UHGV virus genome: UHGV-0191547
Strand: one strand, 5' to 3'
Source of the DNA: a virus
DNA: 26,648 nt
Positions within the stretch are counted from its first letter, which is position 1. Every line of letters begins with the position of its first letter. Below, piece by piece: positions 11,385 to 20,064 of this stretch. The notes under the pieces are model-generated. The model worked only from the letters and a program-made list of their open reading frames with translations. It had not been told where the DNA came from and ran no database searches. Made by a program: the position numbers and the translations under genes.

Positions 11385-14300
11385 ATGAGTAGCGGCGGCG
11401 GCAAAGCAAAAACACCAACTTTAATTAACGATAATCTATATCACAAACAGTTTTATCGTGTACTCGACATTATTTCAGAAGGTCCGATTTATGGTCCTGT
11501 TAATACCAATGCGCCATTAAACAGCGTAATGCTTAATGACACCCCTGTAACTGACGCGAACGGCAATACCAGCATCCCCGGTATTAGCGTAGCGTGGCGC
11601 AATGGTACGATAGATCAATCACCGATTAACGGTTTTAACGCCATTGAATCAACCGTTATTGTTAACGCACAGGTTAAACACGATACACCAATAATCAGGA
11701 CCGTTTCCGATCCTAACGTAAACCGCGTTCGCCTGAATATCGGCGTCGATTCACTTGTACAATCTGACGAGCAAAGCAATCAACATAACACATCGGTTAT
11801 GATGATGATTGACGTGAAGCCTTCGTCTTCTTCTACGTGGACGCTTGTTAAAGACGTTACTATAGGCCCAGGTAAGATCAGCGGAGAATATCTTGAAGCG
11901 CATATTATCAATGCACCAGATGAAAAACCGTTTGATATTCGCGTTCGCCGTGTAACCGCTGATAGCACAAGCGATCTGTTGCAGAATGATACGCGATGGA
12001 GTAGCTACAGCGAAATAATCGACGATAATTTGTCTTATCCTCACACCGCTGTAGCTGGCGCGGTAATTGACCATGATCAGTACGCTGACACGCCTACCCG
12101 CACCTATCACCTTCGCGGGCTGATTGTTGATATTCCTGATAACTACGACCCGGAAAAGCGCACTTATTCCGGTTTGTGGCTTGGCGGCTTCAAACAGGCG
12201 TACACCAATAACCCAGCATGGATCTTCCGCTATCTGGTTAAAAACGAGCGTTTCGGCCTTGCTCGTCACGCTGGCTATATTGACGTTGACGACGGCGCAT
12301 TATATACGCTTTCTCAATACTGCGACCAGTTGGTTGATGATGGCTACGGCGGCCTTGAGCCTCGCATGACGCTTAACGCTTACATCACAGAGCAAATGAG
12401 CGCCCGCGACTTACTGGACAATATCGCCGGGATGTTCAGGGGTATCGCGTTATGGGACGGGCAACGCCTTACCGTGATGATTGATGCACCACAAGACCCG
12501 ATCGCCACCATTACAAATGCAAATGTCGTTGATGGCGCGTTTACTCGTTCAAGTATCGCCCGCGCAGAATGCTACAACGCCGTGATCGTATCATGGACTG
12601 ACCCGGAAAACGGATGGGAGCAATCAAAAGAGTATGTAGCAGACGATGAACTGATCGCCCGTGATGGTTACAACGAAACCACGTTAGAGGCGTTCGGGTG
12701 CACATCACGCGGGCAAGCATACCGCGCGGGCAAGTGGCTGATAGAAACAGCAAAACGCGAGCCGTCAAAATTCACGTTTAAAATGGCGCGTGACGCGATT
12801 CACTTTACGCCAGGGGATATTATCGAGATACTCGACAATAACCGCGCAGGCGCTCGTTTAGGCGGCCGCATCGTTGCGAACAACGGCAAAGTAATAACGG
12901 TAGATAAGGTTGACGCCAATTATATCGCCGCTGGGGATACAATCAGCCTTCTTGATAGCGATGGCAAGTTTAAAAAGCATCAGATCACCGGGGTGAGCGG
13001 AAACAAAATCACACTGGCGGCGGCCCCGTCATGGATTCGAAACGGCACTGTTTTTGCTGTATCCACTGAATCAGCAAAACCCGTTTTGTGCCGGATCACC
13101 AGTGTAGCCGAAACAGAAAATAACAGCGTGTACACCATCGAGGCCGCACAGCACGACCCGAACAAGCAAGCAGTGGTCGATGAAGGCGCAATATTTGAAG
13201 TCAACAATGACACGCTTAACCATTTCCGCGTGCCGAACATTGAAAATCTGAAGGTGGTAAACATTGGATCGGAAACAATTCAATGTCGCGCCACATGGGA
13301 AACGCAGACAACAACGCATCGTATGACATTTGAGATCCGCATATATAATGCAGATGGTGCGGTGGTTAAAAGCTATGAAACAACGAAATACAGTTATGAT
13401 TTTTATGGCATTGACGCTGGCGTGTATTCTTTAGGGGTTCGCGGAAGAAATGACACTGGCATGAAGGGCGCGGAAAGTATTGTGGATCTGGTTATTGGTG
13501 CGCCAGCAGCGCCAATAGGTGTTAACTGGGTACCAGGTGTATTTCAGGCTACCGTATACCCGATAAGTAAGACAACGCTAACCACTGATACAGCGTATGA
13601 ATTCTACTATGCAGGGGAAAACCAGATCACAGATCCGGCAAAAATAACCACGGCGGCACAGTTTACCGGGCGCGGGTATCAGTGGACGTTCGGCGGAATG
13701 AACACGGGCCATACTTATTACGTTTATGTGCGTACACGTAATGCTTTTGGCGTGTCAGACTTCGTTGAAGCATCAGGTAAGCCGACAGAAAATTTTGATG
13801 AAATTAGCGATTACGTCACCAAAGACGTGATGAATTCCGAACAATTTAAAGAAATGGTGGGCGACATTAAGGATCTTGGCGATCGCACTGACATTATCGA
13901 AAGTGCAACTCAAGACCTTAAAACAGCTACTGATACCCTAAGCGGAATAACTGAAGGCTTAAGAACTGATACTGATAATTTAATTACAGAAACAGAATCA
14001 ATTAAAGCTGATACTGATTCCCTTAAAAAAGACACTGAAGACCTTTACAAGAAAGTCGAAGAAAACGCCGATGAAATAGGTAAACATGAGGTAAGAATTG
14101 ACTCATTAGAGGTATCAAGCGAAAACGTAGATAATGAACTGGCACAGACAAAAGCAAGCCTACAAAACGCATCGCTTGCTCTTATTAATAATTCGCTTGC
14201 TCAAACTAATACCAGAAGAACGCTGACAGCTCAGATCAAAAACGTGGATTATGAAACTAAGGCGCAAATAGATCGCATTGATAACGTGATTGTCAGTGAA

Positions 14301-16761: not shown

Positions 16762-18552
16762 ATGATTTATACAACGGGAACAATTGCCATTAACGGCAAT
16801 ACTGTTACAGGCACGGGAACAAACTTTTCCGCGCCGCTTTCTCTCATCCGTGTAGGTTGCACGCTCATTGCCATTAGCAATCCTATCCAGATCTTTACCA
16901 TCACAGAAATTAAGAGCGGTACTGAACTGTCAGTGACGCCAGCGGCTAACCCTGCAATTGCTGCCGGGGCAAAATTCAGCATTCTGCTTTCTGACTCTAT
17001 CTCAGTTGATGGGCTTGCCCAGGATGTAGCGGAAACACTTCGTTTTTATCAGGAAAAAGAAGACGAAATATCCAGCGCAATAGATGGCAGCAATATTGGC
17101 TTAGGTCCAGAGCCGCGCGATTGCGTCGATATATCAGGCGATCCGTCTTCTTACGTTGGCTTTTTGCGCATAAAGGAAACGACTAAGGGTTTTCCTTCTG
17201 TAGCGGCTGGTGAATCATTTTTGAGTGGATTTATCTGTCAACGAGACACGACGCCTTCATATACAGGCGTCTTTGTCGGTTGGGCTACGCGATCACTTTA
17301 TACGTATACATGGGTCGCAACATCAGGTCCGAACTGGACACGACACGCAAGAAAAGATGAGGTGGATAGGCTTGTTCAAAGAACAGGAGAAACTCGCGTA
17401 CGCGCTCAAAACGCAAATAAATTCCTTACCGTCTATGATTCAGGATCGTGGGGTTATTATGACTCAGAGGCTAGTAAATGGCTACCGCTTCCAGTTCTTG
17501 CTGGAGGCACTGGTGCGGGAAACGCAGAAGAAGCAAGAAATAATTTAAATCTTGGTGAAAGCAACGCGGTTAAATTCAAAAACCTTACGTTAATAGGGGC
17601 GCTAGATGCAAATTTAGGCATGCTCGTAAAAACTGGAAGAGACTGGAATACTCAGCACACTGACAATATCCAAAAATTTATACCAATGGCAGGAAGCACA
17701 AACGGACCCGCCGGAGCAATGGTACTCGGTGGCTTCCATGTGCAATACAGCACAAATTACGCTGTGCAATTCGGGGGTCGAAATTCCGGTTTTTGGGGTA
17801 GAACAATTGAAAACGGAACAGTTCAGGAATGGCGTCAACTAGCTACGCTTAACACATCCGGTCAAAAATGGACTGCCGGTCAGCATTTTGTGACGACAAA
17901 AATTAACTCTTATGATTTCACAAGACGTTTAACTATCGATGTGATAGAAAACGCAAAAACAAACGCACGGTTACGCTTATGGGGATCAGAAACAAGGCAG
18001 TCCGTTTTAGAATATGGACTCTCGAACGCTGAAACCGATGAGTATAATACATATGGCTTTTATTGCCAGCTTAACCCAGACGGAGTAATTAGTTTTCAGG
18101 TTAACGGCGTAGTAAACTGCACAGCAGTTAATCAGACTTCAGATCGCGATCTGAAGGACAACATTCAGGTTATAGGTGATGCAACTGAAGCAATCCGTAA
18201 AATGAACGGGTACACCTACACCCTCAAGGAAAACGGCCTGCCTTACGCTGGCGTTATCGCTCAAGAGGTAATGGAGGCGCTGCCGGAGGCTGTGGGATCG
18301 TTTACTCATTACGGTAAAGCATTACAAGGCCCGACCACTGACGGCAACGAGCTACGCGAGGAAACGCGTTACCTCAATGTTGACTACGCTGCGGTGACTG
18401 GTTTACTTGTTCAGGTGGCACGCGAAACAGATAACCGCGTCACCGAACTGGAGGAAGAAAACGCCAGCTTACGAGCTAACATTGCCGTCATGGATGAGCG
18501 GATCACAAAACTTGAAGCGCTTGTCAGGCAGTTAACCGGAAGCGAAGAATAA
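16762..18552 (+). CDS. Tail fibre/tailspike protein with C-terminal intramolecular chaperone (peptidase S74-like) domain
   Basis: 596 aa; C-terminal TSDRDLKDNIQVIGDATEAIRKMNGYTY...YAGVIAQEV followed by a coiled coil is the S74 autoproteolytic chaperone signature. Confidence 0.75.
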   Translation: MIYTTGTIAINGNTVTGTGTNFSAPLSLIRVGCTLIAISNPIQIFTITEIKSGTELSVTPAANPAIAAGAKFSILLSDSISVDGLAQDVAETLRFYQEKEDEISSAIDGSNIGLGPEPRDCVDISGDPSSYVGFLRIKETTKGFPSVAAGESFLSGFICQRDTTPSYTGVFVGWATRSLYTYTWVATSGPNWTRHARKDEVDRLVQRTGETRVRAQNANKFLTVYDSGSWGYYDSEASKWLPLPVLAGGTGAGNAEEARNNLNLGESNAVKFKNLTLIGALDANLGMLVKTGRDWNTQHTDNIQKFIPMAGSTNGPAGAMVLGGFHVQYSTNYAVQFGGRNSGFWGRTIENGTVQEWRQLATLNTSGQKWTAGQHFVTTKINSYDFTRRLTIDVIENAKTNARLRLWGSETRQSVLEYGLSNAETDEYNTYGFYCQLNPDGVISFQVNGVVNCTAVNQTSDRDLKDNIQVIGDATEAIRKMNGYTYTLKENGLPYAGVIAQEVMEALPEAVGSFTHYGKALQGPTTDGNELREETRYLNVDYAAVTGLLVQVARETDNRVTELEEENASLRANIAVMDERITKLEALVRQLTGSEE

Positions 18553-18581
18553 GAGGTGATGTGCGAAGAACATCGCCGCGC

Positions 18582-18610
18582 GAAACGAGGCTAACGCCTC
18601 GTTTCTTTTT
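18582..18610 (+). terminator. Rho-independent terminator after the tail fibre gene
   Basis: GAAACGAGGC-taac-GCCTCGTTTC hairpin followed by TTTTT. Confidence 0.65.
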
Positions 18611-18864
18611 GTGTACCAAATAGTGACCAAAATGATAAATCAAAAACAAAAACAAAACATAACACATTGAATACAAATGAATTTTTCATTAAGTTATCCA
18701 TTCAAAAGATAAGTAGGTAACGCCATTTCTATCATTTCATATCGTGTCACATCGTCACCGTTTCACGTTGATTTCAAAAGAAATATTTATTCTATCGTGT
18801 CATATCGTTTTCTATCGTGATACTATCCATGCGTAAAATGTGTGTACCAAATAGTGACCAAATT
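18610..18864. promoter_or_regulatory. attP-like AT-rich region with a 22-bp perfect direct repeat and TATCGTG heptamer repeats
   Basis: TGTGTACCAAATAGTGACCAAA at 18610-18631 and 18841-18862; three or more TATCGTG copies in between; located immediately 5' of int. Confidence 0.4.
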
Positions 18865-20064
18865 ATGCTTACAGATACCAAATTACGAAACATCCACGGC
18901 AAGCCATATGACGGCCCGGAAGAAGTCCCGGACGCGGGCGGATTGTCTGCCAGGATAAGCCCGCGCGGAGTTATATCTTTCCAGTATCGCTACCGATTCA
19001 ACGGCAAGCCTCGACGGATGAAGATCGGCACATACGGAGAAATAACACTCAAAGAAGCGCGGGCGGCGGTGGCGGAGCATAAGGAAGTCTTAAACTCAGG
19101 ACGAGATCCATCGATCGTAAAAAGAATGAAATTGTCACGCGTTACGACACGGGCAACGATTGAGGATATTGTGAGGGAATACATGGAATCACCGCAGGCA
19201 AGAAACATGGTCAACTATAAGCAAGTCGAGGCGATGCTAAGTAAGCACATTGTCAGACCATGCGGTAGCTATATCGTCGATGATATGGACTCCATAATGT
19301 GGGAGGGGATTTTTAGAAAGGTAGCCAATGGTGGCGCGCCCGTTCAGGCCGGGATAGTCTTAAACAGGATGAAGGCGGTGATAAAATATGCCATGCGACG
19401 CCGCCGCGTGGAGCGTGACGACATATCATTACTACGCGTGAAAGACGTAGGCAAAAACCCGGCACAAAGGAAACGCGTCTTATCAATACAAGAGATTCAC
19501 CATCTAATCAGCATTATAGACAGTTCAAAAATGGCGCGGCTAAATCAGATATTGATGAAGCTGATTATATTCACCGGATGCAGAACAAGCGAACTAACAA
19601 ACGCAAGGCGCGAGCATTTCGATCTTGATAACTGTGTGTGGACCGTGCCGGGCGCATTGAGTAAGAACAGAAACGAGTTTAAACGCGGTTTATCCGCCGT
19701 TAGCGTTGATTTATTGCGTGAAGCTATGGATTTGCACGGCTTTAATTTTATCTTCGTTCCCGTGCTTTCTGGAAGGGATGAAGCGGTAGACAGGAGCGTG
19801 CCGAAAACAGCCGCAAGGGATTTGATGCTAAGGATGGGCGGCGAGCCGTGGTCGTGTCACGACTTGCGCCGCACTGTAAGGACAAACCTTTCAGCGCTTG
19901 GCATTGCGCCGCACGTAGCAGAAAAGGTTTTAGGTCATAAACTGGCGGGAATGATGGCTATATATGATCAGTATGATTACGTGAAGGAGCAAATAGAGGC
20001 GATGAATAAACTGGCTGATTACTACATGAAGCCCATTGATTTACAAAATGAAATAACGTCCTGA
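18865..20064 (+). CDS. int: Tyrosine recombinase / integrase, P4 type
   Basis: Start chosen at MLTDTKLRN; N-terminal arm-binding-like segment GGLSARISPRGVISFQYRYRFNGK; C-terminal HDLRRT...LGH...Y catalytic box. Confidence 0.9.
   Translation: MLTDTKLRNIHGKPYDGPEEVPDAGGLSARISPRGVISFQYRYRFNGKPRRMKIGTYGEITLKEARAAVAEHKEVLNSGRDPSIVKRMKLSRVTTRATIEDIVREYMESPQARNMVNYKQVEAMLSKHIVRPCGSYIVDDMDSIMWEGIFRKVANGGAPVQAGIVLNRMKAVIKYAMRRRRVERDDISLLRVKDVGKNPAQRKRVLSIQEIHHLISIIDSSKMARLNQILMKLIIFTGCRTSELTNARREHFDLDNCVWTVPGALSKNRNEFKRGLSAVSVDLLREAMDLHGFNFIFVPVLSGRDEAVDRSVPKTAARDLMLRMGGEPWSCHDLRRTVRTNLSALGIAPHVAEKVLGHKLAGMMAIYDQYDYVKEQIEAMNKLADYYMKPIDLQNEITS

Follow-up and report, generated by a model that had tools for sequence, protein, structure and literature searches.

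The attP region of an mEp021/MagusPhagus-like temperate coliphage: a mapped core in abgT and probable integrase arm-type sites

The DNA analysed here (the window) is a stretch of 26,648 nucleotides from virus genome UHGV-0191547. It comes from a temperate coliphage of the mEp-immI type, like mEp021 and MagusPhagus, and its genes stand in the unintegrated order; MagusPhagus matches it at 94.5% identity across 86% of 25 kb. The features considered below lie between and around two genes transcribed in the same direction (Table 1). The first, the tail fibre gene, is the last late gene before attP and stands at the attR end of the prophage; annotations of MagusPhagus and of E. coli lysogens call its counterpart a tail fibre. 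It is followed by a strong intrinsic terminator with a 10-bp stem (GAAACGAGGC/GCCTCGTTTC), a 4-nt loop, and a run of five T residues, and the hairpin (18582-18605) folds at -18.5 kcal/mol (z = -3.6). The second gene is int.

Table 1. Features of the fibre-int region (coordinates of the window)
Feature	Position	Strand	Evidence
Tail fibre gene, 596 aa, C-terminal S74 chaperone/peptidase domain	16762..18552	+	Pfam PF13884, E = 1.5e-14
Intrinsic terminator of the fibre gene	18582..18610	+	Terminator scan, inverted repeat, RNA fold
P-arm 22-mer (proposed Int arm-type sites)	18610..18631	+	Exact repeat; in attR of strain 09-00049
AT-rich P-arm spacer, 21% GC, A-tracts (CAAAAACAAAAACAAAAC)	18632..18703	.	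Composition, IHF pattern search
att core	18704..18719	.	attP/attB/attL/attR four-way comparison
TATC-type direct repeats, about TATCNNTTCA, P' arm	18730..18833	+	Positions; type II comparison
P'-arm 22-mer (proposed Int arm-type sites)	18841..18862	+	Exact repeat; present in attL
int, type II mEp-immI tyrosine integrase, 399 aa	18865..20064	+	Pfam PF13356, PF22022, PF00589
Small helix-turn-helix (HTH) protein, 72 aa	20022..20240	-	44% identical to mEp021_02 (annotated HTH)

The integrase carries an N-terminal Arm-DNA-bind_3 domain (PF13356; aa 2-87, E = 1.6e-19), followed by central and catalytic domains (PF22022 and PF00589). It is 50% identical to type I Int, 49% identical to type III Int, and 25% identical to the Int of P4. 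The arm domain is the most conserved part of the protein, with 62-67% identity between types as against 33-44% for the core-binding domain. The start of int was set by the conserved MLTDTK and by an in-frame upstream stop in mEp021. Two in-frame ATGs further upstream (18829 and 18838), which would place the second 22-mer of Table 1 inside int, as annotated in MagusPhagus and mEp010, were rejected because the mEp021 stop falls within the repeat and because every lineage starts with MLTDTK or its equivalent behind a Shine-Dalgarno sequence of its own.

A preliminary description of this DNA had pointed out a perfect 22-bp direct repeat flanking about 210 bp of AT-rich sequence with repeated TATCGTG heptamers, and each of these observations holds: TGTGTACCAAATAGTGACCAAA is present in two exact copies on the same strand, 231 bp apart from start to start and separated by 209 bp; GC content is 30% over 18610-18862 and 46% for the whole window; and TATCGTG occurs six times in the window, three of them (18740, 18793, and 18813) within 80 bp on the + strand. 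It had missed a further level of repetition: two 11-bp units, TGTGTACCAAA and TAGTGACCAAA, stand in tandem within each 22-mer. The first copy shares one base with the T-run of the fibre terminator, and the last base of the second lies 2 nt before the int ATG. No further match with up to three mismatches was found in the window (none expected, from 100 shuffles).

The nature of the region is established by E. coli prophages of this phage type, which are split within it. Junctions were read in six lysogens, and an empty site was found in abgT; sequences representing attL (L001), attR (L004), the empty attB (L005), and phage attP (the window, MagusPhagus, and mEp010) align on AAAAGATAAG, with a six-base extension. 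The match to E. coli genomes ends sharply, at about 18704 on the int side and about 18713 on the fibre side. Within the core, the stretch shared without mismatch with E. coli attB in abgT is 18704-18713 (AAAAGATAAG), which includes the strand-exchange zone, and 18714-18719 is a polymorphic extension that reads TAGGTA in the window and CGGATA in attB and MagusPhagus; lysogen N1286 keeps the TAGGTA variant on the int side (attL). Strain 190 narrows the identity to 9 bp, AAAAGATAA. Recombination with the E. coli chromosome thus takes place inside AAAAGATAA(G), at 18704-18712/13, a sequence that matches the 3' end of abgT. The P-arm pair lies 72 bp to the left of this core and the P'-arm pair about 125 bp to its right. 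Integration turns the fibre side into attR and the int side into attL, with one 22-mer remaining at each. Core-type inverted repeats were also sought, and the best arrangements, which match at 6/9 positions and vary between core variants, were too weak to accept.

Fibre gene and int adjoin in the window and are about 54 kb apart, at opposite ends, in the prophage. Since the E. coli prophages split inside 18610-18862, the window reflects phage or excised-circle order; both the attP-like character of the region and its unintegrated order had been put forward in the preliminary description, which had also allowed that the true core might lie elsewhere, a possibility now set aside by its location between the two 22-mers. 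The search of the host chromosome that it had recommended led to the 3' end of abgT and not to a tRNA or tmRNA gene. ARAGORN called no tRNA or tmRNA gene over the whole window, and the lack of tRNA-like sequence noted earlier is explained by the target being a protein-coding gene. The host gene is left truncated at its 3' end; restoration of abgT by phage DNA was ruled out, as the hybrid frame meets a TGA precisely where phage and host DNA join, and 27 residues are missing from the end of AbgT. A 2025 paper reported that type II integrases of mEp-immI phages target the 3' end of abgT (PMC11893012), and our junction mapping agrees independently with that report. This integration site, together with similarity to genomes of the mEp010/013/044 type, places the phage with integrase type II and att motif II of the mEp-immI group.

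The 22-mers are probably Int arm-type sites flanking the crossover point, as first suggested in the preliminary description; the claim draws support from their presence on both arms in one orientation, their conservation across Int types, and the P4-like anatomy of the region. The pairs occupy the same two positions despite different integrase types, cores, and intervening DNA, and pair-to-pair spacing is 230-241 bp in 6/6 lineages. In type I phages (mEp021, mEp554, L060, and L063), which have another core and unrelated inter-repeat DNA, the 22-mer is found at both positions with 0-2 mismatches. In the type III prophage LSU61 and in phage L095, 12-bp units are altered jointly on both arms, TGTGTACCATAT being common to the two. 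Oslo-like Salmonella phages (relatives of vB_SosS_Oslo), whose Int is about 45% identical, carry TGTGTACCAnnT pairs on both arms. The P-arm copy is kept in types I and II, diverged in type III, and present in the Oslo-like phages; within mEp-immI its conservation is partly explained by the neighbouring conserved terminator block. Across six lineages, mean pairwise identity is 73-79% for the two repeats and 24-56% in their flanks. The P' copy forms an island of 79% identity (92% in its first unit) between flanks at 24-45%, near the level of unrelated sequence.

This island bears on the idea that the 22-mer has no function and stayed behind as a duplication scar, or as a recombination hotspot, when integration modules were exchanged. 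Such modules have clearly been exchanged in the phage group, with a left divergence boundary near 18651, and two contigs (L019 and L024) lack exactly the DNA between the 22-mer copies; as these contigs are 99.85% identical, they count as one observation and not as independent ones. Against this idea, the P' copy stands out from its flanks, the two arms co-vary in type III, and the second 22-mer lies inside the module, between core and int, rather than at its outer edge. We regard this as the most improbable of the readings considered. Apart from that reading, and more tentatively, the direct 22-mers may occasionally delete attP precisely, which would give non-integrating variants such as these two contigs.

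We also considered whether the 22-mers could be operators for a phage regulator, for instance the mEp-immI immunity repressor, that controls int and has no role in recombination. All mEp-immI phages form one immunity group (PMC11893012), so conservation across integrase types would be explained, and the P' 22-mer abuts the int start. The immunity-repressor operator was nevertheless rejected, since the complete 54-kb MagusPhagus genome, immunity region included, holds no other copy even with up to six mismatches. In addition, the 22-mer reads as a direct repeat and not as a palindrome, the copy behind the fibre terminator has no gene there to regulate, and the same motif pairs are also found in the Oslo-like phages of Salmonella and ahead of integrase genes of other genera. 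The operator reading as a whole is accordingly very improbable, and we return to the 22-mers as probable Int sites.

The P' 22-mer was present in 25/25 distinct upstream regions of Int homologues (at least 44% identity), 24-52 nt before the start. A genome-wide scan of 185,579 species genomes gave 86 matches, of which 14 preceded a same-strand Int homologue by 2-62 nt and at least six others stood upstream of divergent integrases; about 50 had no neighbouring integrase, and many matches fell in unrelated settings such as thrS leaders, cobQ upstream regions, or mutY coding sequence. The scan is informative yet noisy. A full-text literature search for the motif returned unrelated primer sequences only.

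The DNA between the 22-mers contains further candidate binding sites. The P-arm spacer, with its A-tracts, is a possible site for a bending factor; a pattern search of the attP region for the IHF consensus WATCAANNNNTTR gave no match. On the P' arm, TATC-type units are phased every 10 bp in two clusters (18730/18740/18750 and 18793/18803/18813), with a further unit at 18824. Their ATCGTG cores are kept among type II phages and the spacers between them vary. TATC-related units occur in type I phages too, and a similar unit abuts the core at 18695. The idea that the heptamers are strictly specific to integrase type was rejected, as the type I TATCCGTTCA equals the type II core-left unit at 9/10 positions. 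Downstream, the gene for the 72-aa HTH protein is convergent with int and overlaps its 3' end. The mEp021 homologue of this protein matches HTH_23 (6e-07), and the window protein itself gave only a weak AlpA match (E = 0.19), together with a match to a PHROG of DNA-binding proteins (E = 5e-4). From these similarities we infer that it is a candidate recombination directionality factor (RDF; excisionase). The TATC-type repeats are putative accessory sites, and our best guess for the protein that binds them is this excisionase candidate.

These roles could also be exchanged, with attP as mapped, the TATC-type repeats serving as the arm sites of Int, and the 22-mers bound by another protein, either a host factor or the candidate excisionase. 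The TATC repeats are direct, lie on the int side near the core, and are conserved among type II phages, and the related unit that abuts the crossover could be a sign that Int recognises such sequences. According to PMC7498355, RDFs typically have direct repeats spaced by one helical turn as their sites, and the two 11-bp units of the 22-mer also fit that description. However, apart from the core unit, TATC repeats were noted on the P' arm only, whereas 22-mer pairs stand on both arms, like the annotated repeats of P4. The 22-mer also tracks the conserved Int arm domain and persists in Oslo-like phages in spite of their divergent Int, whereas the candidate RDF is just 44% identical even between types I and II. 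Finally, the constant spacing of the pairs favours a bridging role. We judge the exchanged assignment to be unlikely.

Overall, it appears likely that 18610-18862 is an attP used by a type II P4-family Int, that the 22-mers are its arm-type pairs, and that the P' pair is autoregulatory. The region has the anatomy of a heterobivalent tyrosine integrase attP (lambda/P4 class): an adjacent recombinase with a separate arm-binding N-terminal domain, a core shared with chromosomal attB at the prophage-host junctions, and repeats of the predicted arm type, distinct from the core, on both arms. In the model that we propose, the Arm-DNA-bind_3 domain would bind the 11-bp units (core motif GTGTACCAAA), the core-binding and catalytic domains of the same protomers would hold the core, and bridging by Int would join the P and P' arms into an intasome. 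Int bound to the P' pair would also repress its own gene. Because that pair lies between any prophage-active int promoter and the int ATG, Int probably regulates itself negatively there, as do P4 Int and the KplE1 integrase IntS, each of which represses its own promoter overlapping attL (PMC7286903 and PMC2951348, respectively). A sigma-70 promoter scan called none between core and int, so the case for autoregulation is purely geometric. By eye, a TAAAAT-like hexamer directly precedes the P' pair in several lineages; we do not rely on it.

The locus is an ordinary example of a known design and reveals no new mechanism. Its value lies in narrowing this phage's attP core down to about 10 bp and in identifying probable arm-type sites for an integrase clade common in gut E. 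coli prophages. To PMC11893012, which describes the integration loci and whose main text, by word search, does not mention attP, direct repeats, or excisionase, it adds the layout of the arm repeats and the observation that this layout is kept from one integrase type to another. The design is modular: cores and core-binding domains are swapped around a conserved set of arm domain, arm sites, and arm-site spacing. The results should be of use in annotating prophage ends, in predicting int autoregulation, and in developing integrases as site-specific tools.

A broader proposal, which we offer tentatively and would not ourselves bet on, is that a large Arm-DNA-bind_3 clade shares one arm-site code on a fixed scaffold and is re-targeted by core swapping. 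The shared code may consist of tandem GTGTACCAAA-type units on both arms, 230-241 bp apart, and the clade may span mEp-immI, the Salmonella Oslo-like phages, and prophages of Sodalis, Yersinia, Erwinia, Citrobacter, and Atlantibacter, possibly extending beyond. If so, re-targeting among ydaM, abgT, and mppA would require only a new core and inner P' arm together with new core-binding and catalytic domains, and co-resident prophages of the clade could cross-regulate or cross-assist one another through shared arm sites.

In lambda attP, the paradigm for heterobivalent integrases and one that the layout proposed here resembles, the core is flanked by arm-type sites bound by a separate N-terminal domain of Int, adjacent arm sites are about one helical turn apart, and sites for accessory factors lie between core and arm sites. 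Lambda differs in that the 3' end of its int faces attP, with transcription from pI and pL, and in that its Int has an arm-binding domain of another family with another arm consensus. Lambda also has obvious IHF consensus sites, of which none was found in the attP of the window.

The closer likeness is to satellite phage P4 (NC_001609), whose Int is homologous to that of the window (BLASTP, 25% identity over 254 aa, E = 2e-21), carries the same Arm-DNA-bind_3 N-terminal domain, and has the product name "integrase arm-type DNA-binding domain-containing protein." In both phages transcription of int leads away from the core, the 5' end of the gene lying next to the P' arm, and the P arm is the shorter (54/113 bp in P4, 72/about 125 bp here). 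In the P4 record, tandem pairs of 12 bp in the same orientation on both sides of the core are annotated as "attP arm sequence repeat," where the units of the window are 11 bp; the pairs are 209 bp apart in P4 and 231 bp apart here, and the int-side pair ends 15 nt before the ATG in P4 and 2 nt before it here. The arm motif itself differs (TGTGTACCAAAT-type in the window, TGGGGGCATAAT/TGGGGGCAYAWW in P4), so the comparison is one of architecture and not of sequence. P4 further has an extra inverted arm copy over the ATG and another inside int, and its excisionase, Vis, has no relation to the 72-aa candidate and is specified by a gene distant from int. The window thus shares with the P4-type module a homologous Int, an int 5' end facing the core, and same-orientation tandem pairs on either side, but its core of about 10 bp lies in protein-coding abgT, whereas the 20-bp core of P4 lies in the leuX tRNA gene. 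Integration into a tRNA 3' end is a typical trait of these modules but not a strict requirement, since protein-coding targets are used by many integrases of the P4 family. The P4 attP-int module was described by Pierson & Kahn 1987, as cited in PMC7286903.

The nearest relatives by target are mEp010, mEp013, mEp044, and the prophages of 09-00049, UMNK88, and others, which belong to the same group and have a type II Int and the abgT 3' end as target (PMC11893012). For regulation, the closest parallel is provided by the KplE1/HK620/Sf6 modules, in which the int promoter and attL overlap, the stretch from core to int ATG contains both arm-type (P') sites for Int and RDF sites, and int is under negative control by Int as well as by the RDF (Panis et al. 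2010, PMC2951348). These modules target the tRNA gene argW, where the window targets abgT, and their binding sites were mapped experimentally, where those of the window are predicted from sequence. By analogy, the regulatory logic that we propose for the window attP would be that of KplE1.

The perfect 22-bp direct repeat that the preliminary description placed between the fibre terminator and the start of int is present as claimed, with both copies exact and 231 bp apart, and the DNA that it brackets is AT-rich, 18610-18862 having a GC content of 30% compared with 46% for the window. Zero chance matches to the repeat are expected in the window, and no third copy was found there, even at three mismatches. 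Read directly from the sequence, the 22-mer consists of two tandem 11-bp units, TGTGTACCAAA and TAGTGACCAAA. The pair on the P arm (the fibre side of the att core) lies 72 bp from the core and the pair on the P' arm (the int side) lies 121-127 bp from it, in one common orientation. The T-run of the terminator shares one base with copy 1. Repeated TATCGTG heptamers (18740, 18793 and 18813, three within 80 bp) were likewise seen, and ARAGORN found no tRNA gene in the window, in agreement with the reported lack of tRNA-like sequence. In two phage contigs, L019 (IMGVR_UViG_3300045988_076816) and L024 (IMGVR_UViG_3300045988_064823), a single 22-mer joins the fibre terminator to the int ATG, with exact loss of 231 bp relative to window 18610-18862, so that both the core and the TATC repeats are absent. 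This structure is expected from direct-repeat recombination or slippage, or from an assembly shortcut; as both contigs derive from a single metagenome and share 99.85% identity, they were counted once.

Features of the attP region, host junctions and type III arm units
Feature	Position or sequence	Strand	Remark
22-mer copy 1, TGTGTACCAAATAGTGACCAAA	18610-18631	+	exact repeat
22-mer copy 2, TGTGTACCAAATAGTGACCAAA	18841-18862	+	exact repeat
Intrinsic terminator behind fibre gene	10-bp stem 18582-18605		-18.5 kcal/mol, z = -3.6
Tail-fibre gene	upstream of terminator		596 aa, S74 domain
Tyrosine integrase gene int	ATG 18865		399 aa; starts 2 nt after 22-mer copy 2
attB, empty site	...CCACCA AAAAGATAAGCGGATA GGGCAAG...
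attL, int side	host-CCACCA AAAAGATAAGCGGATA ACGCCATTTC-phage
attR, fibre side	phage-CCATTC AAAAGATAAGCGGATA GGGCAAG-host
attP, MagusPhagus	CCATTC AAAAGATAAGCGGATA ACGCC
attP, window and mEp010	AAAAGATAAG TAGGTA		in place of AAAAGATAAGCGGATA
LSU61 P arm units	TGTGCACCATTA + TGTGTACCATAT
LSU61 P' arm units	TGTGTACCATAT + TGTGCGCCAAAT

The window matches Escherichia phage MagusPhagus (94.5% identity over 86% of 25 kb) as well as mEp010, mEp013, mEp044, mEp021, mEp515 and mEp554, and these matches identify the element as a member of the mEp-immI group, non-lambdoid phages described in 2025 (PMC11893012). Fibre, 22-mer region and int are contiguous in MagusPhagus, as in the window. When the two halves of the region were compared with 5,426 complete E. 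coli genomes, the int-side half matched 13 chromosomes with a sharp start at window ~18704, adjoining ogt and a 3' fragment of abgT, and the fibre-side half matched the same 13 chromosomes about 54 kb away, ending at ~18713/14 within the remainder of abgT. The proposal that attP lies within 18553-18870 is thus borne out by an att core between the 22-mers, and the 54-kb separation of the fibre and int halves in E. coli chromosomes confirms that the window is in unintegrated gene order. The suggested search for host matches and junctions identified abgT as the target, and attL, attR and the empty attB could all be read, the lysogen junctions also showing the orientation of the element. Integration at abgT by the type II integrases of this phage group, the type carried by the window, has already been published (PMC11893012) and is not new.

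A prophage in E. coli N1286 carries the core variant of the window, with TAGGTA kept on the int side and a fibre-side match ending at 18713, and the core in strain 190 is AAAAGATAAA TGGATA. Because of the retained TAGGTA and the strain 190 variant, strand exchange is, on these junction sequences, confined to AAAAGATAA(G), at window 18704-18712/13. To the right of the crossover the core is polymorphic (18714-18719): TAGGTA is found in the window, mEp010, contigs L020, L021 and L026 and the N1286 prophage; most lysogens, like MagusPhagus and L023, carry the attB sequence CGGATA; and strain 190 and L022 have AAAAGATAAA with T/CGGATA. Int sequence does not predict the variant, since the Int of L023 is 99% identical to that of the window and yet L023 has CGGATA. 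Repair of abgT by the phage was ruled out: in the lysogen the reading frame runs ...YPLIF and meets TGA at the junction, costing AbgT 27 C-terminal residues. In contrast to this unrepaired truncation by type II phages, the integrase type III phage of E. coli O157:H7 LSU61, integrated in the 5' end of mppA (L067, 1600-1700; L068, ~12920-13000), appears to provide a replacement mppA start and signal-peptide region; in the RefSeq annotation an intact mppA starts in DNA matching the attP arm of phage L095, and the original 5' fragment remains as a pseudogene at attL.

The four integrase types of mEp-immI phages have been described as conserved in the N-terminal DNA-binding region and variable elsewhere (PMC11893012). 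Domain-wise identities between types confirm this statement, being 62-67% for Arm-DNA-bind_3 (aa 1-87), 33-44% for the core-binding domain and 45-52% for the catalytic domain. If the 22-mer is an arm site, it should therefore persist through a change of integrase type, and it does. The type I phages mEp021, mEp554, L060 and L063 have a ydaM core and unrelated inter-repeat DNA. Their two copies of the 22-mer, with 0-2 mismatches and a spacing of 241 bp, sit at both expected positions, one immediately behind the terminator and the other 12-16 nt short of the int ATG. In the type III prophage of LSU61 the units of both arms are 12 bp long and the two arms have altered together; phage L095 displays this arrangement too. 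A protein-based IMG/VR search recovered a second lineage, consisting of Salmonella phage vB_SosS_Oslo and relatives (Int ~45% identical), which has tandem TGTGTACCAnnT units in each arm at a spacing of 230-231 bp. Among Int homologues of at least 44% identity, the motif lies 24-52 nt before the start in 25 of 25 distinct upstream regions.

An ungapped comparison of six lineages, anchored on the repeat, gave a mean identity of 79% for the P' repeat (92% for its first unit) against 24-45% for its flanks, and of 73% for the P repeat against 39-56%. This island of conservation, together with the co-variation of the type III arms, makes a functionless duplication scar a disfavoured explanation of the 22-mer. 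Nor is an operator for a shared immunity repressor favoured: a complete 54-kb genome of the group holds no further copy of the motif, which argues against such a role, and motif pairs also occur in the Oslo lineage and upstream of Int homologues in other genera. Reversed roles, with the TATC repeats as arm sites and the 22-mer bound by a recombination directionality factor (RDF) or host factor, are disfavoured by the presence of the 22-mer on both arms, its persistence at 45% Int identity and the parallel with P4. Conservation, arm co-variation and spacing thus support the original suggestion that the 22-mers are Int arm-type sites near a core; what is already published on the locus is modestly extended by this assignment, by its conservation across lineages and integrase types and by the constant spacing.

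A degenerate motif scan of one genome per species (185,579 species) returned 86 loci. Fourteen lie 2-62 nt upstream of a same-strand Int homologue (in Sodalis, Atlantibacter, Yersinia, Citrobacter, Erwinia, Escherichia, Algicola, Chitinimonas and a Chloroflexia MAG), and another six or more closely precede integrases whose divergence puts them beyond tblastn; the remainder include unrelated contexts. In several genera (L166, L175, L181, L198 and L169, from Rosenbergiella, Pantoea, Tatumella and an Alteromonadaceae MAG), the tandem TGTGTACCAAAnnGTGTACCAA motif precedes thrS, the gene for threonyl-tRNA synthetase, by ~80-110 nt, a context apparently unrelated to integrases, and similar matches precede a gene read as cobQ in Photobacterium. 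Upstream of a ~32% identical Int, a distant relative, contig L134 (IMGVR_UViG_3300045970_000708), has counterparts of both repeat classes that differ in sequence: GTGTACCC units, one copy inverted, and GTCGCAT repeats in two clusters with 10-bp spacing.

TATCGTG and its variants form two clusters with 10-bp phasing, the P'-arm units belonging to a family of approximately TATCNNTTCA in the same phase. Type II phages conserve the ATCGTG cores and vary the spacers. The units are not strictly type-specific, as type I phages carry the related TATCCGTTCA and TATCCGTACA, one unit lying 8 nt before the P' pair there, compared with 7 nt in the window. Immediately left of the crossover, the 10-mer TATCCATTCA (18695-18704) belongs to the family at 18730-18833, with five P'-arm matches of at least 7/10 compared with 0.99 in shuffles, and agrees with TATCCGTTCA at 9/10 positions. 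RDF sites are typically direct repeats one helical turn apart (PMC7498355). A gene convergent with int encodes a 72-aa HTH protein that shares 44% identity with the mEp021 counterpart and gives weak matches of the AlpA and HTH types. Our best guess, given the 10-bp-phased direct repeats and this HTH protein beside int, is that an RDF binds the TATC-type repeats; Int or a host factor may instead read them.

In the proposed complex, the N-domains of Int protomers would hold the GTGTACCAAA units and the C-terminal domains the core, the Int-bridged P and P' arms forming the intasome. In a lysogen attL is preceded by host sequence, namely the abgT fragment and ogt, which both lie on the opposite strand, and therefore any dedicated int promoter would lie within the 150-bp P' arm, where a promoter scan called none. 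The P' pair would be located at or just past this promoter, such that bound Int should repress int, as Int does in P4 (PMC7286903) and KplE1 (PMC2951348). The type II int ATG at 18865 lacks the Shine-Dalgarno sequence present in types I and III and Oslo-like phages, and type II int expression is therefore probably low. Two in-frame ATGs, 18829 and 18838, precede the conserved start and account for the 411-aa Int of the MagusPhagus and mEp010 records versus 399 aa in RefSeq prophages; the extension would place the P' 22-mer in the coding sequence, but an in-frame stop at this point in mEp021 shows that it is not conserved.

The region is an attP of P4-type design. In the P4 RefSeq record, which carries 'attP arm sequence repeat' features, tandem 12-bp units (TGGGGGCATAAT, TGGGGGCATCTT) end 15 nt before the int ATG, and a second pair (TGGGGGCACAAA, AGGGGGCATATT) lies in the same orientation across a 20-bp core. 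The P4 pairs are 209 bp apart and those of the window 231 bp, and the P arm is the shorter in both (54 and 113 bp for P and P' in P4; 72 and ~125 bp in the window). The two Ints are distant homologues (25% identity, E = 2e-21), and the arm motifs differ in sequence. Judged by these sequences, the window attP therefore shares the architecture of P4 rather than its site.
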